From the NCBI GenBank assembly GCA_036171775.1, contig JAVHRR010000003.1:1-57064 (forward strand): 57,064 nucleotides of DNA, given 5' to 3'. Source of the stretch: Minisyncoccota bacterium (GTDB taxonomy: Bacteria; Patescibacteriota; Minisyncoccia; Phycocordibacterales; GWA1-40-21). The notes beneath the pieces were generated by a model, which was not told the DNA's origin, did no database searches, and saw nothing but the letters and a program-made list of their open reading frames with translations. Of the stretch, positions 5,607 through 55,819 are shown one piece after another (within the stretch, counting starts at the first letter, position 1; each line of letters opens with the position of its first letter). The translations under genes and the position numbers were made by a program.

Positions 5607-6041
5607 TCAAATCTCTATTTCTCTCTCATTTTCGCCAATAAACTTGAAAAATATTTTTGCGTGATTTTTTGGCAATACTTCTATAACCCTTTCTGGCCAT
5701 TCTATAAAAATAATATTTCTTGGATCAACTAAAACTCTTTCCCATTCTATAGCTAAAAGTTCTTTTCCTGAATCTAAACGGTACGCATCTATATGTATAA
5801 GTTTTTTAAAATCTTTATGTTCTATATCGTATATCTTTTCGACAACATAAGTCGGACTAGTAACGTCCTCTTTAATATTAAATATTTTTGCTATGGCTTG
5901 TGTAAATGTTGTTTTTCCTGAACCAAGATCGCCGTAAAGCCCAACGACTAGAGCTGTATTAAAAATGCCCATTGATATCTTTTCGATAAAATCTTTTGCT
6001 ATCTTTTCTGTATCAGAAATACTTTTACTTACCACTTTCAT
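5607..6041 (-). CDS. tsaE: tRNA t6A37 biosynthesis ATPase TsaE
   Basis: P-loop GDLGSGKTTF with YVVEKIY and HIDAYRL motifs. The track start (6059, TTG) lies in a repeat, so the ATG at 6041 (MKVVSKS) is preferred. That ATG is itself the outer tip of the repeat. Confidence 0.85.
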   Translation of the reverse strand: MKVVSKSISDTEKIAKDFIEKISMGIFNTALVVGLYGDLGSGKTTFTQAIAKIFNIKEDVTSPTYVVEKIYDIEHKDFKKLIHIDAYRLDSGKELLAIEWERVLVDPRNIIFIEWPERVIEVLPKNHAKIFFKFIGENEREIEI

Positions 6042-6253
6042 CCGGTAGTGAAATTTCAAATTGTTTTTTTACCCTGTAGTAGAAAATGACATCGTTTTCA
6101 ACGCGCTGTTGCGCAATGTCATTTTTCACTACGGGGTTTATTACTAACAACTAAAAATTTAAATTAAAACTATTGATAAACAGACGACCTTATTTTAAAC
6201 CCATAGATAATAAAAACGAAAGTAATAATTTGAAATTCTACTACGGGATTCAT
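6037..6253. mobile_element. nested ORF-less inverted-repeat units (GTAG-core family)
   Basis: The outer pair is ttcatccggtagtgaaatttcaa (6037-6059) and ttgaaattctactacgggattcat (6230-6253). The inner pair is accctgtagtagaaaatgacat (6071-6092) and atgtcatttttcactacggggt (6116-6137). Confidence 0.7.
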
Positions 6254-8394: not shown

Positions 8395-8532
8395 TTCATC
8401 CGGTAGTGAAAAATGACATCGCTCTTCCGAGCTGGATATTTAAACTATGAAATATATTGTAAATAAGATCATTTTTAATAATTAATATGATCGATAAATT
8501 TGCTTAATGTTATTTTCTACTACGGGATTCAT
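8395..8532. mobile_element. ORF-less GTAG-core inverted-repeat unit
   Basis: Termini are ttcatccggtagtgaaaaatgacat (left) and tattttctactacgggattcat (right). Confidence 0.65.
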
Positions 8533-8675
8533 CGGGTAGTGAAATTTCAAGTTGTTTTTATGTTGACCATAGTACAACTTTGAAAATGTCGACCTGTGTT
8601 ACAAAAACGTCTTTGGTTACATCTACATTTTTTTAAAAACAAGTCAATGACTTGAAATTCTACTACCCGATTCAT
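8529..8675. mobile_element. ORF-less GTAG-core inverted-repeat unit, tandem to the previous one
   Basis: Termini are tcatcgggtagtgaaatttcaa (left) and ttgaaattctactacccgattcat (right). It shares the tetranucleotide tcat with the preceding unit. Confidence 0.65.
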
Positions 8676-8819: not shown

Positions 8820-10496
8820 ATGGTAGATTTTGATGAAATAAAACAAAACAAACGCCTAGAGGAAATGCGTAAAAATGAAGAAGAAGACGTCTCTAAAATT
8901 TTGGCAGCAAAATACGGTTATGAATATTTAGACCTTGGTGTCGTTCCAATCAACAGTGATGCTATAAGAATAGTGAACGAAGAAGATGCTAAGGCTTCAA
9001 ACGTAGCTGTATTCGGGATCGTTGGTAAAAAATTACAGGTGGCTATTATTTCCCCAAATGATGAAAAAACTATTGCTGTTATAAACAAACTTTCAACTGA
9101 AGGGTTCTTCCCTTCTGTTTATATGGTTTCAAAAAGAAGCTTGGAAAAAGCATGGAACAGATATAAAGATTTGTCTTACTCTTCAGAGAGCACAGCAGGT
9201 ACTTTTGATATCGCCGGAGAACAGATCCTCGTTATGATGGGCAAAGTTAAACACATAGCTGACGTGGAAAAACTCATTGTCGATCTTTTGGGTGTAAAAC
9301 AAACCTACAGAATTTCAAAAATAATGGAAATCATGCTTGCTGGTGCGTTGGCACTTGGTGCTTCTGACGTGCACATTGAGCCTGAAGAAACTGAAGTAAG
9401 AATGAGATTTAGAATTGACGGCGTTCTTCTTGATGTATTTAGATTTGATAAACCAACTTACACACTACTACTTTCAAGAATCAAACTCCTTTCTGGATTA
9501 AAATTAAATGTTAAGGATGAAGCTCAAGACGGACGTTTTAGTATTAAAATCAAAGACAACAATATAGAAATAAGAACTTCCCTTCTTCCGGGGGCATATA
9601 ACGAATCGATTGTTATGAGACTTTTGAATCCAAAATCAATTGCTGTTTCATTGGAAGAGCTTGGTATCGAAAAAAGAACTCTTGATGTTCTTCTAGAACA
9701 AATCAACAAACCAAATGGAATGCTTCTCATTACTGGACCAACTGGTAGCGGTAAGACGACGACACTTTATGCTTTTATTAAAAAAATATATGCTCCTGAT
9801 GTAAAAATTCTTACCATTGAGGATCCTATCGAATATCACTTGGACGGTATTGTTCAAACACAAGTTGAAGATGAGAAAGGTTACACTTTTCTTGCTGGAC
9901 TTCGCGCCGCAATGAGACAAGACCCTGATGTAATCATGGTGGGAGAAATTCGAGATGCCGAGACTGCGGGCACGGCCATTCAAGCTGCGCTCACTGGTCA
10001 CTTGGTTTTTTCAACACTTCACACCAACTCAGCCGCAGGTGCATATCCTAGACTTATAGATTTGAAAGTAAATCCAAAAACAATTCCTTCAGCCTTAAAT
10101 GCTGCTATGGCACAAAGGCTTCTTAGAAAACTTTGTCCTTTTTGTAAAAAAGAAAATGATCCTAGTGAAAAAGAGAAACTAATTATTAAAAATACTTTAG
10201 AGAGTATTCACGACAAATCTTATCTAGAAGGAATACAGACAACAAAAGTTTTTGCCGCTGTAGGTTGTGACAAGTGTAATGGTACAGGTTATAAAGGTAG
10301 AATTGCCATTGTTGAAGCGATACTTTCTACAAAAGAAATGGAAAAAGTTATAGAGACCAACTCGAGTGAAAGAGAAATAAAGAAAGCTGCTGAGTCACAA
10401 AACCTTCTTGATATGAAGCAAGACGGAATACTAAAAATATTAAAAGGAATAAGCTCTATTGATGAGCTTTCTCGTGTAATAGACCTAGACCAGTAG
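8820..10496 (+). CDS. pilB: type IV pilus / type II secretion assembly ATPase (GspE/PilB family)
   Basis: Walker A GPTGSGKTTT, Walker B/Asp box DPDVIMVGEIRD, His box GHLVFSTLHTN and a tetracysteine motif CPFC...CDKCNGTG. Confidence 0.9.
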   Translation: MVDFDEIKQNKRLEEMRKNEEEDVSKILAAKYGYEYLDLGVVPINSDAIRIVNEEDAKASNVAVFGIVGKKLQVAIISPNDEKTIAVINKLSTEGFFPSVYMVSKRSLEKAWNRYKDLSYSSESTAGTFDIAGEQILVMMGKVKHIADVEKLIVDLLGVKQTYRISKIMEIMLAGALALGASDVHIEPEETEVRMRFRIDGVLLDVFRFDKPTYTLLLSRIKLLSGLKLNVKDEAQDGRFSIKIKDNNIEIRTSLLPGAYNESIVMRLLNPKSIAVSLEELGIEKRTLDVLLEQINKPNGMLLITGPTGSGKTTTLYAFIKKIYAPDVKILTIEDPIEYHLDGIVQTQVEDEKGYTFLAGLRAAMRQDPDVIMVGEIRDAETAGTAIQAALTGHLVFSTLHTNSAAGAYPRLIDLKVNPKTIPSALNAAMAQRLLRKLCPFCKKENDPSEKEKLIIKNTLESIHDKSYLEGIQTTKVFAAVGCDKCNGTGYKGRIAIVEAILSTKEMEKVIETNSSEREIKKAAESQNLLDMKQDGILKILKGISSIDELSRVIDLDQ

Positions 10497-11141
10497 TAAG
10501 ATATTGGATTTTGATATCGTTTTTTAAATTTTCGTCAAAACTAAAGAGTTGCTTTGATTGTAAAATAGTTCATTTAAAAAATATACTAATAACTATACAA
10601 ACAAAAACAAAGTGCATCGCACATATCGGTCGCTTGAGCGACGCGACTTCACGAAGTCGATATCAAAATTCACTATCCTACTTGAACAACAAAATTAATT
10701 GTGTTTTAAAAATATTTTGAGCTTGCCCGGACACCTATTTTAAAAAATAATTTACGTTTATTAAAAAACGATTTCTCTTTGTGTATTTTTATTTGCCAAA
10801 TACAATAAAGTGATGTGGAAATAGGTGTGGGGGCTTGCAAAAGTCTTAAACAATAATAAGATACAGGACAAGAGGTGGTTTGAATACTATTCAACCAATG
10901 TTCAAAACATAAATCTCTAAACAATACTTTAAACCTGGCGGTAAAAAGTTAAATTAGTTTTTAAGGATAACTTCAGCGTTATTCCCGAAGAAATAAACCA
11001 AAATGTCCTTGAAAAAGAACCCGTATGATCTTGCGAACACAATTGTTTAGAGATTTATATTCAGAACTTCAAACAAATAAAAATGGGGAATAAAAAACGC
11101 CCCACATAGGCTCTGCAAAGAGTATATCATGGAATAACATT

Positions 11142-15270: not shown

Positions 15271-17850
15271 ATGTTAAAAGACAATTATAAAGCATTGAGT
15301 CATCATATAAATCAAAATATTAAGCCTAAAGCTAAGAAAACTTTGTTTTTGGCTAACAAAAATAGAAAACAAATTTTTATTATTTCTATAGCTTTGTTTT
15401 TTGTTTTTTGTGGAATTATAGCTTTGTGGATTTCAACTTTTCAAATGCCCGACCTTCAGTCTTTTCAAACGAGAAAAGTTACTCAGTCTACAAAAATATA
15501 TGATCGCACAGGAAAAATTTTGCTTTATGATATTCATGAGAACACAAAAAGAATTGTTGTTCCTTTTGAAAATATTTCAAAAAATATAAAAAATGCTACT
15601 GTTGCTATTGAGGACGCGGAGTTTTATCAGCATGGTGGTATAAAAATCTCTTCTATTGTTCGTTCTGTTTTTTCTAACATTTTGTCTGGTAGTTTCAGCC
15701 AGGGTGGTTCTACTATTACACAACAGGTTATTAAAAATTCTTTACTTACTACTGAAAAAACAATATCTAGAAAACTAAAAGAATGGGTTCTTTCTATTGA
15801 GATTGAAAAGGTGATGACAAAAGAAGAAATACTTTCTGTATATTTGAATGCTAACCCTTATGGAGGTACAATTTATGGTGTTGAGGAAGCTAGCCAGGCT
15901 TTCTTTGGGAAAAAAGCCTCTGACGTTACTTTGGGTGAAGCTGCTTATCTTGCTGCAATACCAAAAGCACCTACATATTATTCTCCTTATGGACAAAACA
16001 AAACCCAACTCACAACAAGACAAAAACTTGTTCTTTTAAAAATGCTCGAAAACAAATTTATAACTCAGACGGAATATGATGAGGCCACAAAAGAAAAAGT
16101 TTCTTTTCTTCCACAAGAAAAATATGGTATAAGAGCGCCGCATTTTGTGGAGTTTATAAGACAGTATTTGGTAGAAAAGTATGGAGATGTTGCAGTAACA
16201 GAAAAAGGATTTAAAATCATCACAACGTTAGATTTTGACCTTCAGACTAAAGCTGAGGAAATCGTAAAAAGGAAAGCTTTGGAAAACGAAATTAATTTTA
16301 ATGCGGAAAACGCTTCTGTCGTGGCCATTGATCCTAAAACAGGACAAATATTAGCCATGGTTGGTTCTAGGGATTATTTTGATAAACAAATAGACGGCAA
16401 CTTTAACGTTGCCCTTGCCCACAGACAGCCCGGTTCTACATTTAAACCTTTTGTTTATGCAACCGCTTTCGAGAAAGGCTATACGCCAGACACTGTACTT
16501 TTTGACCTCCCTACAGAGTTTCAAACCACCTGCACACCTGATGGTAACCCGATAAATCCCGATGCAGTTATTTCTTCTTCTACCGCTTGTTATATGCCAG
16601 AAAATTATGATGGTAAATATTTGGGTCCTATTTCTCTACGAAATGCACTCGCTCAATCAAGAAACATTCCGGCCATAAAAACTTTATATCTTGCAGGAAT
16701 TAAAGACTCTATAGAAACAGCAAAATCTATGGGAATAAAAAGTCTTTCTGATGATCCAAATCAATATGGATTAACTTTGGTTATTGGGGGGGGTGAAGTT
16801 TCTTTACTTGATATGACCAGCGCTTATGGGGTGTTTGCAAATGATGGGGTAAGAAACCCTTACACAGGGATCATTTCAGTAGAAGATTTGCAGGGAAATG
16901 TTATTGAATCATTTAATCCAAATCCCCAAACTGTTCTTGTTCCAAACATCGCCGAAACAATTTCTGATGTTTTGTCTGATAATATGGCAAAAATACCCGC
17001 TTATGGATTAAACTCTCCTTTATTTTTTACTGGCAAACAAGTGGCTTCTAAAACAGGAACCACAAACAATTATAAAGATGTTTGGACTATTGGTTACACG
17101 CCTGAAATAGTTGTTGGTGCTTGGGCTGGAAACAACAACAACACCTCTATGGAAAAGAAAGTTGCGGGAACAATCATTGTTCCCCTATGGCATGAGGTAA
17201 TGGCTGTAGCACTTGCTAGCACAACTGGAGAAACTTTTGTAAAACCTGCCCCAATAGATCGCTCAATCAAACCTGTTCTTCGTGGTGTTTGGCAGGGTGA
17301 AGAAACTTATTTTATTGATAAAATTTCTGGCAAGCTTGCTACTGAACTGACGCCGGAAGAAACAAAACTTGAAGTTGTTATTCCAAATGTCCACTCAATC
17401 CTTTATTGGTTAAACAAAGAAGATCCTTTGGGTCCAGCACCAATATATCCCGCTGACGATTCTCAGTTTAGTTTCTGGGAGTACTCTGTCCAAAATTGGG
17501 TTACAGCCCACCCACAAGCCTCTACAACCAAACCAACCGCCCTTGATGATATTCACACCGAACAAAACAAACCAAGAGTTACAATCATTTCTCCTTTACT
17601 AAACAATGAGTATGACAAAGATGGTCGTATTGGTATTATGTTTTCAACCACTGCTAAATATCAGATTATTAAAGCGAATTTTTATCTAAATGAGGAGCTT
17701 GTTGGGTCTTCAGACGCCTTTCCTTTTATACTAAACTTTGTACCCTCTTCAACAAACTCTTTCTTTGTTGGAATTAATGATTTAAAAGTTGTTGTTTATG
17801 ATAGTGTTTATAACAAAGGGGAAGCTTCTATTGGAATAAAAATTAAGTAG
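15271..17850 (+). CDS. class A penicillin-binding protein (glycosyltransferase + transpeptidase) with a C-terminal extension
   Basis: An N-terminal TM, GT51 motifs (EDAEFYQHGG, GGSTITQQ), transpeptidase motifs STFKP and KTGTT, and about 200 extra C-terminal residues. Confidence 0.9.
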   Translation: MLKDNYKALSHHINQNIKPKAKKTLFLANKNRKQIFIISIALFFVFCGIIALWISTFQMPDLQSFQTRKVTQSTKIYDRTGKILLYDIHENTKRIVVPFENISKNIKNATVAIEDAEFYQHGGIKISSIVRSVFSNILSGSFSQGGSTITQQVIKNSLLTTEKTISRKLKEWVLSIEIEKVMTKEEILSVYLNANPYGGTIYGVEEASQAFFGKKASDVTLGEAAYLAAIPKAPTYYSPYGQNKTQLTTRQKLVLLKMLENKFITQTEYDEATKEKVSFLPQEKYGIRAPHFVEFIRQYLVEKYGDVAVTEKGFKIITTLDFDLQTKAEEIVKRKALENEINFNAENASVVAIDPKTGQILAMVGSRDYFDKQIDGNFNVALAHRQPGSTFKPFVYATAFEKGYTPDTVLFDLPTEFQTTCTPDGNPINPDAVISSSTACYMPENYDGKYLGPISLRNALAQSRNIPAIKTLYLAGIKDSIETAKSMGIKSLSDDPNQYGLTLVIGGGEVSLLDMTSAYGVFANDGVRNPYTGIISVEDLQGNVIESFNPNPQTVLVPNIAETISDVLSDNMAKIPAYGLNSPLFFTGKQVASKTGTTNNYKDVWTIGYTPEIVVGAWAGNNNNTSMEKKVAGTIIVPLWHEVMAVALASTTGETFVKPAPIDRSIKPVLRGVWQGEETYFIDKISGKLATELTPEETKLEVVIPNVHSILYWLNKEDPLGPAPIYPADDSQFSFWEYSVQNWVTAHPQASTTKPTALDDIHTEQNKPRVTIISPLLNNEYDKDGRIGIMFSTTAKYQIIKANFYLNEELVGSSDAFPFILNFVPSSTNSFFVGINDLKVVVYDSVYNKGEASIGIKIK

Positions 17851-21024: not shown

Positions 21025-21194
21025 TAAAAAAGTAAAATGAAAAATGAAAAAATATAATCACAAACTATAAATAAAATTCATCAATCATTATAACCGAAAC
21101 AGAAGATAAAAAGACTTGTATTTTCTATCGATTTGGGTTATATTGCATTGTAAGTGAATGAGATTGTTTATTTTACTTTTTTCATTTTACTTTT
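21025..21194. repeat. family D inverted-repeat unit (AAAGTAAAATGAAAAATG termini), ORF-less
   Basis: The left arm is aaaaaagtaaaatgaaaaatgaaaaaat and the right arm is ttattttacttttttcattttactttt. The unit ends 5 nt before the rpmH ATG. Confidence 0.65.
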
Positions 21195-24904: not shown

Positions 24905-25912
24905 TTATTCACCAAATAGTACACTGAAACCACCACTTGCATATTGATTTATTTTATTAATGTTTTTTAAATCAAGTGATATAGACGCAATTCCTTTTTG
25001 TGTGGTTGTCGCTTGTCTCATTATTATTTCATTTGTTTTTCCTGCTGGCGATACATAACCGTCATTTACATACCAGGAATAATCAGAATTTTGAGATGAG
25101 TCTGTAAGAAAATCAAAAGAAAAAGGTTTTGCAACAATACTTAACTCCTCTTTATTCCCAAGGAAATAGTCTCCAAAAATAGCTTTGTTGTACAATATAC
25201 CGTACAAAGGACTGTTTTCAAAAAACAATATTTTCGGATCATTTTTTACAATTAATTTAGATGTCTCTACCAAGATGTTGCCAGACTCATCTGTAATTTG
25301 GACAGCAACATTGATATCTCTTATAGGAATAATACTATTTACAACAATCGAGTTTTGTCCTTTCCCGGAATTATCAGCTAAAACATTATTATCTCTAGAC
25401 CAAGTAAAATTTAAATTCTTAGCGGGTATTTTTATACCACTAACCATTATATCTGGTAGAGCGATGATTTTAACTTTACCTTCAGCCACAAAATACGGTT
25501 TGCCTTTATAAAAAGGAAGAGTATAAGACATCGGCTCTATTACAAGGTCTATTCCAGCTAAAGACAGATCTTTAGATGTTTCTTTTATTATTCCATCTGA
25601 AGTTCCAACAACAACCCTAACATTTATCTTTTCATCAGTGTTTTTTGTTTTTATTACGATACTCTTACTCGTACTTTCTCTTCTAACGACACCATCTACA
25701 TACCAAACAATTTTTGACGAGCTTAAATCTAATAATTCACTTGAAACAGTAAAAACAACACTATCGCCAGCTCGTGGAGAGGATGGTGAAAAGCTCAAAT
25801 TAACTGATGAAATAGAATTAGAAACAGATTCTTGGGCCACAACAACACCAATAGAATAAAAAGCTATTAGTATCAGAGAGAGCTGAATTGATTTTTTTAA
25901 TAAACCTGACAT
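24905..25912 (-). CDS. secreted hypothetical protein in the T4SS-like locus
   Basis: 335 aa with a signal/anchor segment and a beta-rich sequence. No family recognised. Confidence 0.5.
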   Translation of the reverse strand: MSGLLKKSIQLSLILIAFYSIGVVVAQESVSNSISSVNLSFSPSSPRAGDSVVFTVSSELLDLSSSKIVWYVDGVVRRESTSKSIVIKTKNTDEKINVRVVVGTSDGIIKETSKDLSLAGIDLVIEPMSYTLPFYKGKPYFVAEGKVKIIALPDIMVSGIKIPAKNLNFTWSRDNNVLADNSGKGQNSIVVNSIIPIRDINVAVQITDESGNILVETSKLIVKNDPKILFFENSPLYGILYNKAIFGDYFLGNKEELSIVAKPFSFDFLTDSSQNSDYSWYVNDGYVSPAGKTNEIIMRQATTTQKGIASISLDLKNINKINQYASGGFSVLFGE

Positions 25913-27844: not shown

Positions 27845-27858
27845 AATGTTATAAATTT

Positions 27859-27955
27859 AAAGATAAAAATGAAAAATGTAAAATTATAAACGCATTCTTT
27901 TGAATTAAATTTTCTATTTTGAATTTTATTTTTGATCTTTTCATTTTACTTTTTT
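27859..27955. repeat. family D inverted-repeat unit, ORF-less
   Basis: The arms are aaagataaaaatgaaaaatgtaaaatt and aattttatttttgatcttttcattttactttttt. The right arm overlaps the stop codon of the 27954-28586 ORF. Confidence 0.65.
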
Positions 27956-28586
27956 AATTTGGAATAATTGGTTTCTCCATATCTCCAGGGTTAAATATTT
28001 TATAGAATAATTCTACAATTTCCTCTGTTCCAAGCTGTGCCGTTCTAATACCACATCTAGATAAACCTTGTGAAATTGTGCCAATTCTCTGCTCCATTTG
28101 CGTTCTATTTTCATCAAAATGGTTTTTGTTTCCCGTGTTTACTTGAGGTGATCCACCTAATAGTTGACCAAAAGCACTTGAAGATTGCGAACCTGAGGTT
28201 GATGGAGAAAATGGTATTACTATAAAAAATGTTTTAGTCATTATACTTGTTTGCTCAACAAAGTTTTTCACAAACTGAATGTATTCTTTAATTTGTATTT
28301 TCATAAGATCCCCTACCTCATTTTTGTATCTTCCCTCCAACGTAGCCAAATATGGGCGAATATCTAATTCTCTAGATTGAATAGATATTTGAATAGAAAA
28401 ATCCAAACCGTTCAAGAAATTTTGGAACTGCATTATAATACCCTGCTGTTCATCTACAGACTTTAAAGCAAAGTTTACAGAAGAAGCCATAACAACAGAT
28501 CTCATTGAGCCGTCTTTTAATATGACAATTCCGTCACGTATTTCTTTTATTGGAACAAATTCTTGTGTGGCTTTAGATATGGGCAT
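27954..28586 (-). CDS. hypothetical protein in the T4SS-like locus
   Basis: A 210-aa ORF immediately upstream of the VirB4-like gene on the same strand. No family recognised. Confidence 0.5.
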   Translation of the reverse strand: MPISKATQEFVPIKEIRDGIVILKDGSMRSVVMASSVNFALKSVDEQQGIIMQFQNFLNGLDFSIQISIQSRELDIRPYLATLEGRYKNEVGDLMKIQIKEYIQFVKNFVEQTSIMTKTFFIVIPFSPSTSGSQSSSAFGQLLGGSPQVNTGNKNHFDENRTQMEQRIGTISQGLSRCGIRTAQLGTEEIVELFYKIFNPGDMEKPIIPN

Positions 28587-28591
28587 AATTC

Positions 28592-29062
28592 AAATGTAAA
28601 AAGTAAAGAGAAAAGTGAAAAAATAAAATTATAAAATTAAAAATAACAAATCACCTCTTCCCTCTCAGTGTAATTATACTAGATCCAAGGATATTTGCTA
28701 ATTCCACAGCTTCTTTTCTTAGTGAATCGACATCCTGACCTGCAGCTTTACCAGAATCAATCAATATCCCAAGCCAAAAAACTGTTTCATTTGCTGACTT
28801 TAAAGCGTGACTTATAAAATTTGTAAAATCTTTTTTACTGCTTCCTGCTTGTGCTTCTATGATATTAGCTCCAATACTAGTCGCGCTTCTTATTAGTTGT
28901 TTAGCTATTACTTCCGAAGACAAACCGTTTTTTATTATTATATCTATAAGTTTTATAATATTTAAGGCAAAAAAATAACTTCTTTTTTTGATATCATGTT
29001 TGTTAATATTATTTATCATTTATTTTTTAACTTTAAACTTTATTTTTACTTTTTACTCTTTT
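28592..29062. mobile_element. family D inverted repeats carrying a four-helix-bundle gene
   Basis: The left arm is aaatgtaaaaagtaaagagaaaagtgaaaaaataaaatt and the right arm is ttaaactttatttttactttttactctttt. The single ORF 28651-29019 lies between them. Confidence 0.6.
28651..29019 (-). CDS. four-helix-bundle protein (23S rRNA intervening-sequence protein / Avd-like family)
   Basis: 122 aa with the family pattern LIRSATSIGANIIEAQAGSSKKDF...ALKSANETVFWL. Confidence 0.75.
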   Translation of the reverse strand: MINNINKHDIKKRSYFFALNIIKLIDIIIKNGLSSEVIAKQLIRSATSIGANIIEAQAGSSKKDFTNFISHALKSANETVFWLGILIDSGKAAGQDVDSLRKEAVELANILGSSIITLRGKR

Positions 29063-29495
29063 ATTTTTGATCTTCCCTTGTTAGTGGATTTAAACTTTCT
29101 TTTATGTCCAAACTCCAAGTCAAATCCTTCAGCTTACTCCCTGACATTTTAGGAACCGAAACCAAAGATTTTGCCTTTTGTAGTTGATCAACAAGCTCGG
29201 TGGCAGGTTTCTTTTCTGTTTTTTTCCACAAATACAACTTATCGCCCAACATGTAGTAAAAAAAGGCTTGAACCACATCCACAAAGGGTTTATCATTTAT
29301 TCTGTAGAAAGTAAGTGCCAATGAAAAAGCGACAATTGGAATTATAATAAGTATTGCAATAAATTTATATGGAATATACATATAAAGAGCTATTGCTGCA
29401 CCCGCACCACCAGCCATATATAAAAACTGTTTCAAGGTAAATGGCCCGAAAATCTTATCCTCGACTTCTATAAATTGTGGTACTTGGAATTGCAT
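29061..29495 (-). CDS. PrgI family (VirB3-like) membrane protein
   Basis: The N-terminus MQFQVPQFIEVEDKIFGPFTLKQFLY is followed by two TM helices. I recall this as the hallmark of PrgI-family T4SS proteins. Confidence 0.6.
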   Translation of the reverse strand: MQFQVPQFIEVEDKIFGPFTLKQFLYMAGGAGAAIALYMYIPYKFIAILIIIPIVAFSLALTFYRINDKPFVDVVQAFFYYMLGDKLYLWKKTEKKPATELVDQLQKAKSLVSVPKMSGSKLKDLTWSLDIKESLNPLTREDQK

Positions 29496-29504
29496 ATTTT
29501 TAAC

Positions 29505-29583
29505 AGGTTATAGGCCGTAGCTTTTTAGCTTTTTAGGAAATGCATTAATTGTATTTCCTAAGAAGCTAATAAGCTACAAGCTA
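29505..29583. repeat. family A intergenic palindrome inside the T4SS-like locus
   Basis: aggttataggccgtagctttttagctttttaggaa ... ttcctaagaagctaataagctacaagctag. Confidence 0.65.
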
Positions 29584-30360: not shown

Positions 30361-33249
30361 TTATTTGCTGTCTTCTTTCATTTGCTTAGCCACCTTTTTT
30401 GCTAATTCATCGGCAGCTTTTTCTTCCTTGGCTTTATCCTTGTCTGATTGGCTTGTACCCATTTCGGCAGCCCGTGCAATCTCGGCGTTTTCTGGTGTAA
30501 AGTTAGCACTAAGGAATTTATTTCTTATATATTTAGCATAGTTCGCTTTGGTATTCTTGCTTTCTTGAATTGTTTCTATTGTTGAACTAGATAATCCCCC
30601 CCTTAGGTTTGGTCTAACATAACCAAAAGTTGCTTTGTTTACCGCTCCAGATATTCCACCTCCAACAAAATCAGCCATCTTATCAAGTCCTTCCAAAGCA
30701 AAATTTTTCTTACTTAAATCATCTTTTATTTTACTAAGTTTATTGTCTAATTCTTTTATATCATTATTTATTTCAGCTGCTTTTGTCTGTTCTTCAGTTT
30801 TTGTTTTTATGTCGTCATCTAATTTTGCAGATTCTTTTCTGGCGATAACAAGTTCTTTTTCAATTTTATCTTTTTCAAATGTTGTTAGTGCCTTTTGCTT
30901 ATCAGCTTCAAGTTTTTGTTGCAGAGCTATATTTGCCAATTTATCAGCTTCAAGTTTTTTCTTCTCATTGTCGAGCTTCTGCATATTTTTATCAGATTCC
31001 TTGAAATTTTCTCCAGTGCCAGCAGCCTGAAGTTTCTTCATTGCCTCTTTTGGATTGTTTTGAAGAGTTTGTCTTTGTGATTTAATTGCATCCAATTTCT
31101 TTGACAAAGTTTTGGCTTCGGTGACCTCACCATTTCTTGTTGCATCCTCAATTTGCTTTTCTAATTTTATTTCTTCTTGTTTAAATCTTTCCACTATTTC
31201 TCTATCAACAACTCTCTTTTCATAATCACCCGCCGCACCTTCAAAAGCCTCAGCTTGTTTAACAGCATCTTTTTTCTGCTTATCCATCAAGCCAGAGAAC
31301 CCTGTTTGTCCTTTCCCGTATTCTCCACTCGCTTTCAAGTAACTCTTGTCTATGATACCACCACCAATACCGCTAATTGTTCCTGCCTGTCCGAGCACCT
31401 CTTTCAAAGCGGTTGTATTTCTCATATCAAATGTGCCAGTCGATGCGCTCTTTAGTGTTCCAAGTGTTGCTTTTGCTATATTGCCGCCGATAAAGCTTCC
31501 TGAAGCAGCAGCGTTGCTGAGCCTTTGTCCATATTTGCTGTTTGCGAGTGCGTTTGCTCCTCTTCCTGCTACCTGTCTTGCAACAAGAGCTGTTCCTCCA
31601 GTAGCCGCGCCAAGAGCTAGACCTGTTCCTACCTGCGCTATTTTGTCTACAAAGTTGCCCATAGGACCACTCAAACTCTTTGTTAGACTGACTGATTTTA
31701 GAAGAAGATAAACAACAAGGAAGAAATTAAAGAATACCATCATAGGACCAGTCGATGCTTGCTTAGCAAGAATTTGAGAAAGTCGGATAGTTAACAACAT
31801 AAAAAACATAATAGCTGGAGCAATCAAAACTTGATCCTGAAGGCTTTTACGCCAAGCTGTAGAAAATGTACCGATTCCAGGAATAACTTCACCAACAAAA
31901 CCAATAGGAGAAGTGGCCATAAGCACCACCAACATCACAAACCTACCTATAAGAAGTGCAGAAAGGGCGAAAAATACAAAAGTGGTTATTAAAAACAAAA
32001 CCAACCTAGTAAATGCGTTTAATAAGCCAGAGACACCAACAATACTTGCTGCTGAAGTGGCGGTGTTGTTGTTTTTAGTACTATCATAAATAGTTGTAAG
32101 ATTTAAACCATCCATAATCATTCCGCTCAAATCAATATTTGTGATTGCCCCAGAAGAACCTCCAACGGCTTTTAATAAGCCTTGTGTTTTAGAAGTAGAT
32201 TCGTCAGTTACCGTTTGTATCTGATTGTATATTGAAGTTGCTACAAGATTGCTAGCGTCTATGACAACTCTAGTTATAAAAAAACTAAAATTAATTAGAA
32301 CAGCAGAAATAATTATGGACATCAAAATCTTTTGTGCCGCCACCCCAGTAACTATCTGCTTAATGGCAGCATATAGAAGTATGAAAATAAATGTAATGTT
32401 TGCTGTGTCTCTAAGTAAAACCCAAACGGTTTGAATAGAACCATTTAAATCTTTAGTAAAGCCAGTACCAAAAATAGTGAACTGCACAGAAAAATCCAAA
32501 ATACTACCCGCAACAGCCAAAAGAAATGAGGCGATTGGTATTGTAATGAACTCGAGAACGAAGGCTATAACACCGCCAGCTTGGTCAGCAGCAAATTGTG
32601 CAATCGAACCCACAGTACCAGCCAAACCTCCCCAAATAATATCCCACACAGTTGTTTGATTAACCTTTTCTCTTCCAATGGATGCATTGTATTCTTGAAG
32701 AGCGGTGTCATACTGGACGGCCAAAGCAGCAATATTTGCAGGCATACCCATTGAGGTAACTTCAGCTTGTGTATAGTTTGGAATATCTGTAGCAATATTA
32801 CCATGCTGATATTGCTTGTTATTTTCTGTTCCTGGCATAAATGCGTTATTATACCAAAGACCATCACCTTTATAGGTAAAATCACCCGTGCTTATCGTCC
32901 CAGTTAAATCTTCTTTGTATTTAACTGACCAAGTGGGTGGAATCGGTGCTTTTGACGCTTGAGATATTGAACATTGGCGAGTTAAAGAGGTCAAAGGAAC
33001 AACAGTACATCCAGCAGGTACTGTAGACAATACAGCACAGTTTGCGAAGCTTGAGCCACCCGGACTAGTGTTACATGTCGTACTCCAACTTGCGCAACCG
33101 CACGATGCAGCTTGAACGACAGAGATATTAAAGGAGAAAAAACCAACCAATATAATTATGGTAGATAAAATAAATGCAACAGATTTTTTTGTAAAAAATC
33201 TTTTCGTCCTGTAGTGAAATTTTGACTTGTTAAATTTTTTGTTTTCCAT
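30361..33249 (-). CDS. VirB6/TrbL-like polytopic membrane protein with a Cys-rich ectodomain and a long K/E-rich coiled-coil tail
   Basis: 962 aa with an N-terminal anchor, a Cys-rich segment (ASCGCASWSTTCNT...), at least 6 TM helices in residues ~215-540, a Gly/Ala-rich tract and a charged tail of about 330 aa. The first 15 codons lie inside the GIY-YIG element. Confidence 0.6.
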   Translation of the reverse strand: MENKKFNKSKFHYRTKRFFTKKSVAFILSTIIILVGFFSFNISVVQAASCGCASWSTTCNTSPGGSSFANCAVLSTVPAGCTVVPLTSLTRQCSISQASKAPIPPTWSVKYKEDLTGTISTGDFTYKGDGLWYNNAFMPGTENNKQYQHGNIATDIPNYTQAEVTSMGMPANIAALAVQYDTALQEYNASIGREKVNQTTVWDIIWGGLAGTVGSIAQFAADQAGGVIAFVLEFITIPIASFLLAVAGSILDFSVQFTIFGTGFTKDLNGSIQTVWVLLRDTANITFIFILLYAAIKQIVTGVAAQKILMSIIISAVLINFSFFITRVVIDASNLVATSIYNQIQTVTDESTSKTQGLLKAVGGSSGAITNIDLSGMIMDGLNLTTIYDSTKNNNTATSAASIVGVSGLLNAFTRLVLFLITTFVFFALSALLIGRFVMLVVLMATSPIGFVGEVIPGIGTFSTAWRKSLQDQVLIAPAIMFFMLLTIRLSQILAKQASTGPMMVFFNFFLVVYLLLKSVSLTKSLSGPMGNFVDKIAQVGTGLALGAATGGTALVARQVAGRGANALANSKYGQRLSNAAASGSFIGGNIAKATLGTLKSASTGTFDMRNTTALKEVLGQAGTISGIGGGIIDKSYLKASGEYGKGQTGFSGLMDKQKKDAVKQAEAFEGAAGDYEKRVVDREIVERFKQEEIKLEKQIEDATRNGEVTEAKTLSKKLDAIKSQRQTLQNNPKEAMKKLQAAGTGENFKESDKNMQKLDNEKKKLEADKLANIALQQKLEADKQKALTTFEKDKIEKELVIARKESAKLDDDIKTKTEEQTKAAEINNDIKELDNKLSKIKDDLSKKNFALEGLDKMADFVGGGISGAVNKATFGYVRPNLRGGLSSSTIETIQESKNTKANYAKYIRNKFLSANFTPENAEIARAAEMGTSQSDKDKAKEEKAADELAKKVAKQMKEDSK

Positions 33250-33527
33250 ATAGATAACACCGCAACCTCCTCTTTAACAATCTACCTCCCTATGTTGTTT
33301 TTAAATATCGCTCGCGTCTTACAGCGTCTTCTTTATTTAAGCAACTTTCGTAATATATTATTTTCCAAGGTTTGTACCGTTTTGTGGAAAAATTTAAACC
33401 AAGATTATGTTCTTTAAAGCGTTTTTTGAGATCTGACGTAAAACCTGTGTACAACTCATTATTCTTCACACTTTGTAATATATAGTTGTAGAACATAATC
33501 GAGTCAAAATTCTACTACGGGATTCAT
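33203..33527 (-). mobile_element. GTAG-core inverted-repeat unit carrying a GIY-YIG nuclease ORF
   Basis: Termini are ttcgtcctgtagtgaaattttgactt (33203-33228) and agtcaaaattctactacgggattcat (33502-33527). The interior is filled almost entirely by the GIY-YIG reading frame. Confidence 0.7.
33230..33496 (-). pseudogene. GIY-YIG nuclease family (COG2827/UPF0213-like) ORF with an in-frame TAG
   Basis: The 68-aa ORF contains FYNYIL, LYTGFTSDLKKRFKEHN and RRERYLKTT. After the TAG at 33290-33292 the same frame continues as GGRLLKRRLRCYLYGKQKI to a TAA at 33230-33232. That restores the usual family length of about 88 aa and the YLKTxxGxxxLKxRL tail. Confidence 0.7.
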
Positions 33528-33640
33528 TAGACTAACAAATTATAACACTTGCAATAAATTAAATAAAGGCAAATGGGTGTTTATTATTATATTTTTGTAA
33601 TGTCTCTAAAATTGTAAAAAAAATAAATGAACAAACTAAA

Positions 33641-33675
33641 AAAGAAGGGTTTTCGCTCTGCGAAAACCCTTCTTT
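33641..33675 (-). terminator. terminator after the 837-aa repeat protein gene
   Basis: Hairpin aaagaagggttttcg / cgaaaacccttcttt. It splits the secretion locus into at least two transcription units. Confidence 0.65.
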
Positions 33676-33708
33676 CTTAGTTTGTTTTAAGACTCCTTCC
33701 CCACTATC

Positions 33709-36283: not shown

Positions 36284-37261
36284 CTATCTTTGTATATTTA
36301 AAACACCATCAATTACAGATAAATTTGAAAGAAGGGTTTGAGTAGTATCATTGTATAATGTTAAGTTCGAAAAAAGTCCCAATGAATCTGGGCCAGAATT
36401 TACTATATCTTTCTCGATAGCTATTATTATTTCTAAATCATTTATAACCGATAAATGATAATTTATATCATAATAACCTATTGCAACGGGAACTGGCATT
36501 TTTATTAGGTTATTTACTATTGCTTGATACTTATCAATAAATTTTAAAATTTCTGTTTTTGCTGTTGCGCTACCGTCAATAAATGAATTGATTGCGTTTA
36601 AATCAGCCCCTATTATATTTGGAAGCTTACCTGTTTCCATGGAGTAGCTTCTTACATAATCAGTCATATTCTTATTTAAGTTTGTGTTGTCAGTCTTCAA
36701 CAAGTTCAAATCGGTACTTTTTGTTATTCCAGAATAGGCTCTGTTTGGTATTTCGCCCATGGCTTTTGAAATAACTAAATCTTGGCTACTTTGGTCCATA
36801 GTGCCACCCACTGGCTGAGAAGCAATAATATTAGACATCAAATTTCGTGAAAATTTTTCTATTTCATTTAATCTCTCGTATTCTTCTAGGGCTTTTTTAT
36901 TTTCTTCTATAATCGCTAGATCTATTTTGTCATTTGGCTCACCATTAGAAGTAGTGTTTGCTTTTAATGGATCTCTGTTTAAAGAAATTTCGTCGAAGTC
37001 AGATGTTCCGTCTCCATCAGTGTCTGTTTTTTTTGGGTCAGTACCATAAAGGCCTTCTTTCCAGTCTGGAAGACCGTCTTTATCAGAATCTATATTTATA
37101 AATGCAGGAACAGTGTCTGTAGCAGAAGCCAAATCATTATTTATATATTTTGTAGTACTTGGTTTCCAGTAGTTGAGCAGTATTGTCAAAAGAACAATTA
37201 CAATGGCTATAGCCAACGCATATAAAAAATTATTAGACGGAAAATATTTTCTATCTATCAT
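36284..37261 (-). CDS. membrane-anchored protein with thrombospondin type 3-like Ca-binding repeats; first gene of the locus
   Basis: 325 aa with an N-terminal TM and DSDKDGLPDWKEGLYGTDPKKTDTDGDGTSDFDE repeats. Confidence 0.55.
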   Translation of the reverse strand: MIDRKYFPSNNFLYALAIAIVIVLLTILLNYWKPSTTKYINNDLASATDTVPAFINIDSDKDGLPDWKEGLYGTDPKKTDTDGDGTSDFDEISLNRDPLKANTTSNGEPNDKIDLAIIEENKKALEEYERLNEIEKFSRNLMSNIIASQPVGGTMDQSSQDLVISKAMGEIPNRAYSGITKSTDLNLLKTDNTNLNKNMTDYVRSYSMETGKLPNIIGADLNAINSFIDGSATAKTEILKFIDKYQAIVNNLIKMPVPVAIGYYDINYHLSVINDLEIIIAIEKDIVNSGPDSLGLFSNLTLYNDTTQTLLSNLSVIDGVLNIQR

Positions 37262-42512: not shown

Positions 42513-44075
42513 TTACTGACTACGCTTAGGTCTATACTGCAACGCCTCAAGAATATGTGAAGAATTTATTGTCTTACTTCCATCAAGATCCGCAATTGTT
42601 CTTCCAAGTTTTATTATTCTGTGATATGCACGAGCTGACAGATCAAGTTTTTTTGCTGAAGTGTTTAATATTTCCATCGCACTTTTTTCTAAACCGGCAA
42701 TCTTATTAATATCTTTCGCTGACATTTCACTATTTGTTTTTATTTTTCTGTTTGCTTTCGTGAATCTTTCTTTTTGTAAGTTTCTTGCTTTAATTACCCT
42801 TTCTTTTATTTCGGCAGTTTCCTTTTTTGCCGAGTTATCCTCGCTCAATTTTTCATAATTAATTTGTGAAACTTCTACCCACATATCTATTCTATCTATG
42901 ATCGGACCAGAAATTTTTCTTTGATATCTTAAAAGATCTGTCGGTTTGCAAATACATTCTTTTGTTTTTGATCCAAAATTTCCGCAAGGACATGGATTCA
43001 TAGCAGCAATTAAAATAAAGTTGGCTGGAAATGTTACGGTCCCTCTTGATCTTGAAATGCTTATTTCACTTTCTTCAAGTGGTTCACGAAGTGTATCGAT
43101 TACTTTTCTATCAAATTCAGGAAACTCATCTAAAAATAATACACCGCGATGAGCAAGGGTTATTTCACCAGGTTTTGGAATTGAACCTCCTCCAACAATA
43201 GAAACATAAGATGCAGTATGGTGAGGTGATCTGACAGGAGATTTGGTAATGATATCTTTTTTTAATACTCCAGCTACAGAATGAATAGAAGTAATTTCAA
43301 GTATCTCATCAAAAGAAAGAGTTGGCAGTATGTGTGCAAAAGCCTTTGCCAGCATTGTTTTACCAGTTCCTGGAGGTCCGTACATAGCGATATTGTGTCC
43401 ACCAGCAGCTGCTATCTCCAAACCCCTTTTTGCAGTTTCCTGGCCTTTTATTTCACTAAAATCTATAAGCAATTCATCATCTTCCACCACTATCTCTGTT
43501 TGGGGTTGCTGGGTGATTTTTACTCCAGGTTTTATTTCAGATTTTTTATTTACTTGTTTTGTATTTAAATGTTCAATTATTTCTTTCAAAGTGTTTGCGC
43601 CATATATTTTTATATCTGAAACAAGGGCTGCTTCCTTCGCATTGTCTTTGGGCAAAAACACTTCAAGATATCCACGGTTTTTTGCTTCAGCAACAATAGG
43701 AAGAACACCATTTACCCTTCGAAGATTACCATCAAGTGAAAGTTCACCAAGAAATAATATTTTTTTGGCATCAAATTTTACTTCTTCACTTGCAAGTAGA
43801 TAAGCAAGAGATATTGCAACATCAAAAATAGGTCCTTCTTTTTTAATATCGGCAGGGGCAAGAGAAACGACAACTTTTTGATTTAAACTTTTAGGAGAAA
43901 CAAAACCGCTATTTTTAATAGAAGCTGATACTCGGTCACGTGATTCTTCAACACCTTTGTCTGGTAGACCAACTATTGTAAAAGAATGCAGGCCTTTTGA
44001 AAGATCAATTTCTACATCTATTATTTTCGCGCCAAGACCTATTGTCTGTGCGCTCGAGGTTTTTGCAAATGACAT
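42513..44075 (-). CDS. comM: YifB/ComM family Mg-chelatase-like ATPase
   Basis: 520 aa with an N-terminal Lon-protease-like domain, Walker A GPPGTGKT, Walker B VLFLDEFPEF and the C-terminal Mg_chelatase_C pattern. Confidence 0.9.
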   Translation of the reverse strand: MSFAKTSSAQTIGLGAKIIDVEIDLSKGLHSFTIVGLPDKGVEESRDRVSASIKNSGFVSPKSLNQKVVVSLAPADIKKEGPIFDVAISLAYLLASEEVKFDAKKILFLGELSLDGNLRRVNGVLPIVAEAKNRGYLEVFLPKDNAKEAALVSDIKIYGANTLKEIIEHLNTKQVNKKSEIKPGVKITQQPQTEIVVEDDELLIDFSEIKGQETAKRGLEIAAAGGHNIAMYGPPGTGKTMLAKAFAHILPTLSFDEILEITSIHSVAGVLKKDIITKSPVRSPHHTASYVSIVGGGSIPKPGEITLAHRGVLFLDEFPEFDRKVIDTLREPLEESEISISRSRGTVTFPANFILIAAMNPCPCGNFGSKTKECICKPTDLLRYQRKISGPIIDRIDMWVEVSQINYEKLSEDNSAKKETAEIKERVIKARNLQKERFTKANRKIKTNSEMSAKDINKIAGLEKSAMEILNTSAKKLDLSARAYHRIIKLGRTIADLDGSKTINSSHILEALQYRPKRSQ

Positions 44076-49539: not shown

Positions 49540-49579
49540 GTTCCATAAGATATCACATTTATCTCCAAAATGCAATAAC

Positions 49580-49677
49580 ATACGAATAATACCCGAATAT
49601 TACGAATGGGCTACAAATAAGAAACTGGAATTACATTAATTCGTAGTTCATTCGTAATATTCGCATAACATTCGTAT
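49580..49677. repeat. family B palindrome (TACGAAT words)
   Basis: The left arm is atacgaataatacccgaatattacgaatgg and the right arm is ttcgtagttcattcgtaatattcgcataacattcgtat. Confidence 0.65.
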
Positions 49678-49685
49678 CTTATACG

Positions 49686-51548: not shown

Positions 51549-51676
51549 TAAAATGGGCAGATTAGAGTCTAATAAAAGTAATAAATCAAATATGATTTAA
51601 CTGCACACAATTATAATGCGTCAAGGATACGTTTGCAATGATATGGTTTTTTATAAACATGTAAAATATTTGGCGA

Positions 51677-51719
51677 CCCCAGTAGTAAAACCTCAAATGA
51701 ATCTCGGTTTACTACGGGG
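51677..51719. repeat. GTAG-core hairpin flanked by 13-nt direct repeats
   Basis: ccccagtagtaaaacc / ggtttactacgggg. AAATATTTGGCGA occurs on both sides, at 51664-51676 and 51737-51749. Confidence 0.6.
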
Positions 51720-51768
51720 CAGGCATGGTATATAGAAATATTTGGCGACATGTTAGAATATATAGCGT

Positions 51769-53493: not shown

Positions 53494-53829
53494 CTACTTA
53501 ATAAAATTAAACAACCCTCCTATTATAGGCAAAGGTTTCATTTCTTTTTTTAACACATTCATCACACCCATAACGAGACAAGTAAGCATTAAAACGCTGA
53601 ATATTTTTCCCGGGATTAGACCCATCCAGCCAGGTAATATTCCAAAACCAAACTGTCCTGCAAGAGAAATTATCAAAAGAATAATTGCTTGATTGATGTG
53701 GTAATTTAAAAAACTAGATCTTTTTTTTACAAGAATCATTGGTAATGGGAAAAAGAAATAGGCCACAGTTGCCCAAAGCTTGTCGTTGTCTATTTCTAAG
53801 TTTTTTGTATCTTTTTGCTCGTGTGGCAT
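53494..53829 (-). CDS. small membrane protein (DUF4870-like pattern)
   Basis: 111 aa with the pattern WATVAYFFFPLPMILVKKRSSFLNYHINQAIILLIISLAG. Confidence 0.45.
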   Translation of the reverse strand: MPHEQKDTKNLEIDNDKLWATVAYFFFPLPMILVKKRSSFLNYHINQAIILLIISLAGQFGFGILPGWMGLIPGKIFSVLMLTCLVMGVMNVLKKEMKPLPIIGGLFNFIK

Positions 53830-55393: not shown

Positions 55394-55819
55394 CTAGAGA
55401 ATAACATTTTCAATCATTAAAACCTTTGAAACTAGTCGTTTTTTATCTATGTACACTGTAATTACATCAAATATCCAAACTGTTTCGGGTGCCTGCCCGG
55501 CCAGGGAAACGTTCTTTTCGGCTAAATATACTTGTATTGTTCTAGCGAGTCTTTGAAGTTTCCATGGATGGAGATTGTCTTCTGGCCTATACTCACCATC
55601 ACCCACGGTTTCATGGGAAACGTTTGGTATTGTCTCACATGAAACAGACTTTACCTCAATAAACCTTAGTTTCCCATCCTTTTTAGCAATAATATCGATT
55701 TCTCCACATTTTTTTAAGTAATTCCTCTCAATAACCTCAAAACCGTGTTTCATGAGAAACCTACATGCCAGATCCTCGCCCAAGTTCCCTGTTTTTCGTT
55801 TTTCTGTTAGGTTTGCCAT
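55394..55819 (-). CDS. yraN: YraN (UPF0102) family endonuclease-like protein
   Basis: GNLGEDLACRFLMKHGFEVIERNY...GEIDIIAKKDGKLRFIEVKS, with an insertion of about 25 aa before the C-terminal strand. Confidence 0.75.
   Translation of the reverse strand: MANLTEKRKTGNLGEDLACRFLMKHGFEVIERNYLKKCGEIDIIAKKDGKLRFIEVKSVSCETIPNVSHETVGDGEYRPEDNLHPWKLQRLARTIQVYLAEKNVSLAGQAPETVWIFDVITVYIDKKRLVSKVLMIENVIL

Follow-up and report, generated by a model that had tools for sequence, protein, structure and literature searches.

How did a small nuclease gene come to lie between the promoter and the coding sequence of a gene for a VirB6-like membrane protein in the Minisyncoccota assembly GCA_036171775.1? The locus sits in contig JAVHRR010000003.1, positions 1 to 57,064, and by the window we mean this whole 57,064-nt stretch; the minus strand is the sense strand of all genes at this locus. 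A prediction made earlier from the sequence alone (hereafter the original prediction) described a transposon-like unit at 33203-33527, with ~25-nt imperfect inverted termini around one small GIY-YIG frame, and proposed that such units insert at, or contribute, start codons. We conclude that the segment is probably a decaying copy of an insertion-sequence-like element in which a split hairpin holds an Ssn-type GIY-YIG gene in its loop, a reading drawn from sequence comparison. Ssn proteins are single-domain GIY-YIG nucleases of ~94 amino acids (aa; CDD cd10448, GIY-YIG_unchar_3) that cleave single-stranded DNA only, beside a directional hairpin repeat called NTS in Neisseria and, more generally, the Ssn-related motif (Chenal et al., 2025, Nat Commun; PMC11893778).

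The evidence for insertion comes from three orthologous loci, L159, L161 and L162, which we compared with the window. The 962-aa protein encoded here has more than 25 orthologues that open with MKRFFTKKSVA, in agreement with the ancestral start, MKRFFTKKS, that had been predicted. In L161 and L162 the site is empty: the promoter block, ending in ...TTATTGCAAGTGTTATAAT, is followed by 11 nt and runs directly into ATGAAAAGATTTTTTAC, so that the coding start is ATGAAAAGATTT (MKRFF...) with a single ATGAA. The empty target for the element is the promoter plus ATGAAAAG. The window and L159 are filled. At their promoter end, the shared promoter is followed by ATGAA (ATGTA in L159) and then by T-CCCGTAG and the nuclease gene; at their gene end, CTACAGG is followed by ACGAA (ATGAA in L159) and then by AAGATTTTTTAC. 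The promoter block CCTTTATTTAATTTATTGCAAGTGTTATAAT is kept in both empty sites and in L159. Comparison of the loci therefore reveals that a filled one has two copies of the start codon and the next two bases where an empty one has a single copy. Presence and absence at orthologous sites, together with a target-site duplication, identify the segment as a transposable element, as the original prediction had supposed, and its proposal about start codons is borne out in that ATGAA is duplicated and the element's terminal base rebuilds the start.

The element body is 316 bp long and consists of one GIY-YIG frame between hairpin-forming inverted-repeat arms of ~22 nt. Counted with the target copies, the left arm, ttcgtcctgtagtgaaattttgactt, spans 33203-33228, and the right arm, the reverse complement of 33502-33527, is atgaatcccgtagtagaattttgact, which matches the termini first described. 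Read along the sense strand, the parts of the locus, the last of which is the open reading frame (ORF) of the host gene, are:

33636-33680: terminator-like hairpin belonging to the upstream gene.
33539..33547 (-): extended -10 box TGTTATAAT in the promoter that belongs to the VirB6-like gene; 11 nt separate it from the original start codon downstream.
33523..33527 (-): upstream target copy ATGAA, the original start codon, beside the promoter and now reading into the element; single in empty sites, present at either end of the element in filled ones.
33502..33522 (-): promoter-side inverted-repeat arm, T-CCCGTAGTAGAATTTTGACT, supported by pairing and covariation across 36 units.
33230..33496 (-): GIY-YIG (Ssn-like) nuclease pseudogene of 88 codons, with TAG at codon 69 (33292-33290) and TAA at 33232-33230.
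33207..33228 (-): gene-side inverted-repeat arm, AAGTCAAAATTTCACTACAGG-A, the final base of which is the first base of the rebuilt start codon.
33203..33207 (-): downstream target copy, ATGAA changed to ACGAA; the ancestral VirB6-like start codon, inactivated, where L159 keeps ATGAA.
30361..33249 (-): VirB6-like membrane protein ORF, 962 aa as now open, the first 14 codons (MENKKFNKSKFHYR) being element-derived.

Little else fits inside the element. The promoter-side arm is separated by 5 nt from the nuclease ATG, which starts at 33496, and the TAA at 33230-33232 by 1 nt from the gene-side arm, all as originally placed. The upstream start copy, at a distance of 31 nt, does not share the reading frame of the nuclease. 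Beyond the gene-side arm the sequence is CGAA-AAGATTTTTTACAAAAAAATCT, continuing as ...KRFFTKKSVA of the 962-aa ORF, which passes through the arm as ...SKFHYR-T(ACG)-KRFFTKKSVA. Since the rebuilt start has mutated to ACG, which is fixed as ACGAA in the window's population, and the sole in-frame ATG is the one at 33249, inside the element as had been noted, the first 14 residues of the ORF are element-derived. L159 took a different path: a second, ORF-less unit lies inside codon 6 of its VirB6-like gene, flanked by duplicated CAAA, and the annotated protein, P0139, begins within that unit as MSNIKNNLKFHYG-AKKSVA, the unit providing TAAAAT-7 nt-ATG and a new in-frame start. The genes adjoining the VirB6-like ORF match the PrgI and TraC-like families. 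A search for tRNA genes found none in the window.

We then took a closer look at the nuclease. Its read-through product matches the Pfam GIY-YIG profile PF01541 with E=2.3e-17 and 63.5 bits (cutoff 22.6), which confirms the fold first assigned to it. Across 20 aligned sequences Y16, R26, H30 and E62 are invariant and Y5 is nearly so, placing the protein in the GIY-YIG superfamily, and no other domain was found in its 88 aa. The original prediction also called it UPF0213-like, which is true only approximately, the solved UPF0213 structures scoring 26 bits as against 42 bits for SsnA of Neisseria; the solved UPF0213 proteins belong to a CDD family other than cd10448. The PADLOC and PHROG libraries hold no family that matches the nuclease, and a plasmid tblastn search at E<=1e-5 returned nothing. 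The family itself is large, with 8210 clusters at 50% identity matching at E<=0.001 and 1095 at E<=1e-10. Many of its cluster representatives (P0182-P0331) are 105-130 aa long, with the GIY-YIG domain beginning at residue ~25-45; these could be genuine N-terminal extensions or starts miscalled upstream of an arm.

Nearly all of 19 aligned homologues (64-86% identity) have glutamine at codon 69, which in the window has changed from CAG to TAG. The original prediction treated the frame as read through this codon and the copy as the autonomous one, and neither view held up. TAG terminates 13 of 45 ordinary window genes and is therefore not reassigned, and the tail beyond Q69 (GGRLLKRRL...) contains five invariant residues in the homologue alignment. 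With a near-invariant glutamine replaced by what is an ordinary stop in the window, read-through and reassignment were ruled out, and a nonsense mutation is left. The same TAG occurs in all 5 other contigs of the window's population. Judged by these features, the window copy is a pseudogene, not an active master copy. The window and L159 elements, each 325 nt from the upstream ATGAA through the downstream copy, are 83% identical, and their differences fall on codon positions 1/2/3 in the ratio 13/5/33, showing that the nuclease gene has been under purifying selection.

The element is one of many. We scanned metagenome contigs for the arm-to-nuclease junction and obtained 87 distinct units, 78 with an intact frame of 80-100 aa and 9 truncated. 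Both arms were recognisable in 73, most of them 300-320 nt long. Other GIY-YIG genes flanked by these repeats thus exist, as the original prediction required, and intact copies are among them. The same arms also surround GIY-YIG genes in L071, L120, L128, L129 and L159. Element ends take the form N-CCnGTAG...CTACnGG-N', with a terminal pair T:A in 39/73 and C:G in 33/73. An exact 4-bp direct repeat flanks 54 of the 73 two-armed units and occurs as 8 different sequences (TGAA 16, TGGA 13, TATG 12, ATGA 8, TGAG 2, TGTA 1, TGTG 1, TGAC 1). The bases that follow TG differ from one host gene to another, which marks the repeat as a duplicated target rather than element sequence. All 54 repeats overlap a start codon. 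For TGnn repeats, the last base of the element completes the downstream start codon, and where that base is G the host start is GTG. We had also considered a duplication of 5 bp (ATGNN); it was replaced by 4 bp plus the element's terminal base, which fits all three junction classes.

The orientation of these units is strict. A start codon adjoins the gene side in 70/73, with the gene on the same strand, and 54 of those 70 open a long ORF; nuclease and host gene are co-directional in all 54 units with an exact duplication. The host genes are mutually unrelated and include tsaE and genes for a VirB6-like protein, RNase T, a glycosyltransferase and a tRNA-binding protein. The arms accompany every close homologue of the nuclease that we examined; a more distant GIY-YIG gene, 48% identical (L048, 94-291), is instead bracketed by CCCCGTGAGATA and TATCTCACGGGG, indicating that protein and repeat vary together. 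What ties the nuclease to movement as its putative catalyst is this association. The GIY-YIG gene of L048 also adjoins GGAAAGTCCGAACAC, which seems to resemble the 5' end of RNase P RNA.

GIY-YIG is a classic fold of homing endonucleases, and a free-standing homing endonuclease gene of phage or intron type would cut an empty allele and be copied by repair, the inverted repeats being incidental. Such an account might draw on a weak NCBIfam match to a group I intron endonuclease (E=0.001), which falls far below cutoff. We regard it as highly improbable, given a single-domain 88-aa protein with no DNA-binding domain, the absence of any PHROG or PADLOC match, insertions scattered over many unrelated genes instead of a single conserved target, arms that covary with the protein clade and, as described below, the multiplication of ORF-less copies with the same arms.

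The insertion-sequence-like reading, in which the arms belong to the element, finds further support in how they pair. The 21 arm pairs that we propose, taken over 36 different units, are complementary in 97% of cases, with compensatory changes at 11 arm positions. The covariation score is 0.443 as against 0.130 in shuffles, none of 500 shuffles reaches the observed value, and sliding the pairing register abolishes the signal. The two positions that are never complementary are an invariant G.T beside an invariant A.C, which gives the stem polarity. Because several arm variants occur within one genome, the variable half of the arm is probably read as structure rather than as sequence. Folded as single-stranded DNA, units are steadier than their shuffles (z -1.9 to -7.6). 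In the window, the core ATCCSGTAGTRGAA has 10 matches with up to 2 mismatches, as against 0.75 expected, and none of 100 shuffles reaches 10; the match at 50160, inside a coding region, was set aside as chance. Bracketing of the gene by inverted hairpin-forming repeats that are frequent elsewhere in the genome is also what characterises the Ssn family.

Relatives without a gene are indeed present, as the original prediction had recognised, and its placing of them at three other loci was roughly right. The window contains four ORF-less units and one 42-nt hairpin:

6037..6252 (-): ORF-less unit (6040-6249) on the start codon of tsaE, ATG 6041-6039.
6071-6137: 67-nt mini-unit nested in the tsaE unit, with a TTTA duplication; DNA hairpin z=-7.6.
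8395..8675 (-): two tandem ORF-less units (8398-8528 and 8531-8671) with a common TTCAT junction; DNA hairpin z=-2.9 and -5.8.
51680-51721 (+): 42-nt hairpin with CCCnGTAG / CTACnGGG ends, the smallest relative.

The tsaE start codon lies at the repeat tip equivalent to that of the VirB6-like gene, as had been noted; an exact look-up of TsaE found nothing. The tandem units have a -10 box 8 nt upstream and only a 17-codon ORF downstream. The 42-nt hairpin, just upstream of a gene starting at 51769, is flanked by a 14-nt direct repeat, AAATATTTGGCGAC (51666-51750), with 15 extra bases before the second copy, which may be a repair scar of insertion or excision. A further inverted-repeat-bounded unit of ~190 nt with other arms (CCAGTAGTAAGATATTGGATTTTGATATCG ... 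CGATATCAAAATTCACTATCCTACT), at 10490-10682, starts within the final codons of the gene that ends at 10496; it may be a diverged relative.

To survey such units more widely, we scanned a genome collection with the 17-mer TTCTACTACSSGATTCA. About half of the loci were chance matches in unrelated phyla, of which ~280 are estimated for 596 Gb, and only Patescibacteria loci were used. In Patescibacteria genomes the same arms bound ORF-less units of ~125-145 nt (~130-nt units occur in the window as well), which form subfamilies differing in the inner arm half and interior and are found singly, in tandem with a common junction, and nested. In 30/38 cases the ATGA beside an ORF-less unit is the start of an ORF of 100 aa or more, as against 16% of other ATGA sites in those loci (Fisher p=4e-17). 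In a second sample, not selected on flanking sequence, units of ~110-180 nt are flanked by duplications of TTCA, TCAT or TCCA, the reverse complements of TGAA, ATGA and TGGA, and the GTAGTG arm is the one from which the host gene departs. Mini-units (~65-75 nt) have the arm core in common with these units but insert at varied 4-bp sites: those with CCCC/GGGG ends lie away from start codons, between duplications such as TTGA, TCAA and TTTG, and others have TTTA, CCAA and TAGA.

The position of the units relative to promoters was examined next. In most window genes a Shine-Dalgarno sequence is absent and a TATAAT-like box lies 7-10 nt ahead of the ATG, as seen upstream of 36284-37261, 53494-53829, 55394-55819 and 15271-17850, a layout that suggests transcripts beginning at or near the start codon, leaderless or nearly so, as the rule in this genome. 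Among nuclease units, 39/84 have a -10-like box 5-12 nt ahead of the upstream start copy, most often at 6-11 nt, as against 12/84 at a control offset; in the first set of units the counts were 25/59 and 9/59. Box frequencies in both samples thus indicate that about half of the insertions lie between a promoter and its first codon. A generic promoter scan of the units themselves gave nothing above shuffled expectation.

A unit that sits between a -10 box and a start codon, with strongly covarying arms and stable folds, might instead be a structured RNA leader: a long hairpin transcribed with the host gene would control downstream translation or stability, and the nuclease would be a passenger. 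Several observations make this very unlikely. At one further, variable arm position, 10/36 units have T.G on the strand antisense to the host gene, which becomes a C.A mismatch on the transcribed strand. An Rfam search of the whole window at gathering thresholds matched no family, and conservation between subfamilies does not extend to the unit interior. RNA is no substrate of SsnA (PMC11893778), and an RNA leader leaves target duplications and nesting unexplained.

The window has other repeats and motifs. The motif AAGCTAAGAAGCTAC / AAAAGCTAAAAAGCTAC occurs 20-45 nt upstream of several start codons (genes 3027-5495, 24905-25912 and 29061-29495) and makes a palindrome at 29517-29577. A second, ATTCGTAA / ATTCGCATAACATTCGTAT, is directly upstream of two start codons, including that of 42513-44075, and forms a 44-nt inverted repeat at 49575-49682. 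A small gene at 28651-29019 matches PF05635 (23S_rRNA_IVP) and is surrounded by 49-nt A/T-rich inverted repeats, 76% complementary (28598-29068); AAAGT-rich repeat pairs like these also occur at 21028-21194 and 27853-27960. At the VirB6-like locus itself, five independent assemblies of the window's population (L137, L138, L140, L141 and L143) break off on the upstream flank, 9-14 nt short of the promoter-side boundary of the element, and L150 and L151 begin ~40 nt upstream of that boundary; assembly is interrupted by the repeat or by a variant at that place.

The original prediction knew of no described family of this type, but nucleases of the Ssn kind with hairpin repeats were published in 2025 (PMC11893778). 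In that work, repeats were found on both sides of the gene in 42% of Ssn homologues, and the NTS-ssnA-NTS arrangement was likened by its authors to insertion sequences and REP/RAYT. Ssn together with NTS modulates transformation in N. meningitidis, and the role assigned to it is control of transformation, not mobility (PMC11893778). For comparison, we took an SsnA orthologue from an N. gonorrhoeae chromosome (NZ_CP119142.1, 1880522-1883110; L281), a 2.17-Mb chromosome that is filed as a plasmid in PLSDB. Its ssnA orthologue, at ~1192-1470 of the locus, has a frameshift close to the 5' end and inverted NTS copies on both sides, and lies within an array of 11 dRS3/NTS repeats. Reconstructed, it has 94 aa with Y6, Y17 and E64, in agreement with the published protein (PMC11893778). 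An intact Patescibacteria relative of the window nuclease matches it with a BLASTP E=1e-11, 42% identity over 66 residues and an hhalign probability of 97%; scaled to a whole-genome search, this E-value would probably miss the threshold of E<1e-10 used in PMC11893778. The nuclease is nonetheless, like Ssn proteins, a single domain of ~90 aa homologous to SsnA.

The two systems share several features. In both, a single-domain GIY-YIG protein of ~90 aa, whose catalytic Y5, Y16 and E62 here correspond to Y6, Y17 and E64 in SsnA, is encoded between hairpin-forming repeats that also occur in many copies without the gene. The repeats have polarity in both, different protein clades carry different repeats, and the junction bases at the base of the stem are alike, xTC-AT(T)CCCG...CGGGA(A)T-TC. 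They differ in that the Neisseria repeat is a complete hairpin of ~28 nt, whereas here its halves stand ~100-300 nt apart and enclose a gene or spacer; the stem here is CCnGTAGTrGAA, and the C-terminal tail is unlike that of SsnA. REP/RAYT and IS200/IS605 elements also resemble the units in their short palindromes with a conserved GTAG, their single small nuclease gene between inverted copies, their many gene-less copies, their recognition of a single-stranded hairpin and their short fixed target beside it. Those systems, however, use HUH Y1 enzymes, which have an unrelated fold, whereas the only ORF of the element encodes a GIY-YIG protein, which is hydrolytic and forms no covalent tyrosine intermediate. 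IS200/IS605 makes no target duplication, unlike the units here, which duplicate 4 bp. Finally, the intergenic mosaic elements of Neisseria (RS units bounded by dRS3), the Correia elements and the Rickettsia palindromic elements are likewise ~50-150 bp long, bounded by inverted repeats and found in junction-sharing arrays, such as the one around ssnA in L281. Some of them become coding sequence or supply promoters; none is known to lie specifically on start codons or to rebuild them with a terminal base.

The kind of system is thus one already described, and what is added here, from the comparisons above, is sequence proof of insertion and the split-hairpin layout. The 4-bp duplication over a start codon, the start rebuilt by the terminal base and the strict co-orientation likewise go beyond what has been published on Ssn. 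A word search of the text of PMC11893778 found no Patescibacteria, start codons or empty sites, and transposition only in passing; start-codon targeting and target duplications are absent from that paper, and a start-codon preference is unreported in the literature that we searched.

How might such an element have arrived? At the VirB6-like gene, it went into the start codon, between the -10 box and the coding sequence, duplicated TGAA (4 bp) and rebuilt the ATG with its terminal A. The nuclease would recognise the arms when they pair in single-stranded DNA and nick beside them, as SsnA of Neisseria and Wolbachia does, and host repair or replication would complete the move. A place directly behind a promoter that initiates at or near the ATG would let the nuclease gene be expressed, so the bias toward start codons may come from such captured expression, or else from a preference for DNA opened at transcription starts. 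ORF-less units of 130 nt gain nothing from expression, yet they share the bias.

Several points weigh against this account. GIY-YIG enzymes hydrolyse DNA without a covalent intermediate, which leaves the joining step without a known catalyst. Neisseria SsnA cuts a few nt upstream of its hairpin rather than at the repeat boundary, and leaves double-stranded DNA uncut (PMC11893778), so that a staggered duplication of 4 bp is hard to explain. Similarity to SsnA covers only residues 5-66, the catalytic core, and the C-terminal tails differ; the published Ssn-related motif, HGTCWYN(0-2)YYVSBRHN(0-5)WNVSBRGN(0-2)RNCYNB, has 0 matches on either strand of the window. The bias toward start codons could reflect selection after insertion and not targeting, mini-units being inserted elsewhere. 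No empty site was found in the window's own population, all of whose contigs either include the element or break off 10-40 nt short of it, and the population gives no sign of recent movement.

The published role of Ssn raises a further alternative, that of a domesticated host system, limiting, for instance, recombination or the uptake of single-stranded DNA around particular genes, or else of portable promoter and start-codon modules, with spread as a by-product. The modulation of transformation in N. meningitidis (PMC11893778) speaks for it, as do the purifying selection on the nuclease and its intactness in 78/87 units, the box and N-terminus (MSNIKNNLKFHYG) that a unit gives to P0139 in L159, and the start of the window's VirB6-like gene inside the element. 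Still, we consider it unlikely: duplicated targets, nested and tandem units, empty orthologous sites and decayed copies all bear the marks of insertion, the affected host genes are unrelated to one another, and the generic promoter scan stayed at chance level.

The insertion-sequence-like reading is therefore the one that we prefer. It is quite possible, although we would stop short of calling it probable, that these units form a transposable family aimed at the start codon, which in these organisms often coincides with the transcription start, and driven by a hydrolytic GIY-YIG single-strand nuclease rather than by a known transposase, one that rebuilds the start with A or G, captures the host promoter and leaves the host gene usable.

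The study of Ssn left open whether nuclease-hairpin units move and what role they have outside Neisseria (PMC11893778). Insertion is now supported at the level of sequence by empty sites and duplicated targets, by nested units, and by copies that have decayed or lack an ORF. Units of this kind are associated with contig breaks in Patescibacteria assemblies and change predicted N-termini, two VirB6-like proteins beginning with element-derived residues that contain KFHY. If the preference for start codons is mechanistic, it would suggest that DNA can be inserted without a classical transposase and would link single-stranded DNA at transcription starts to integration.

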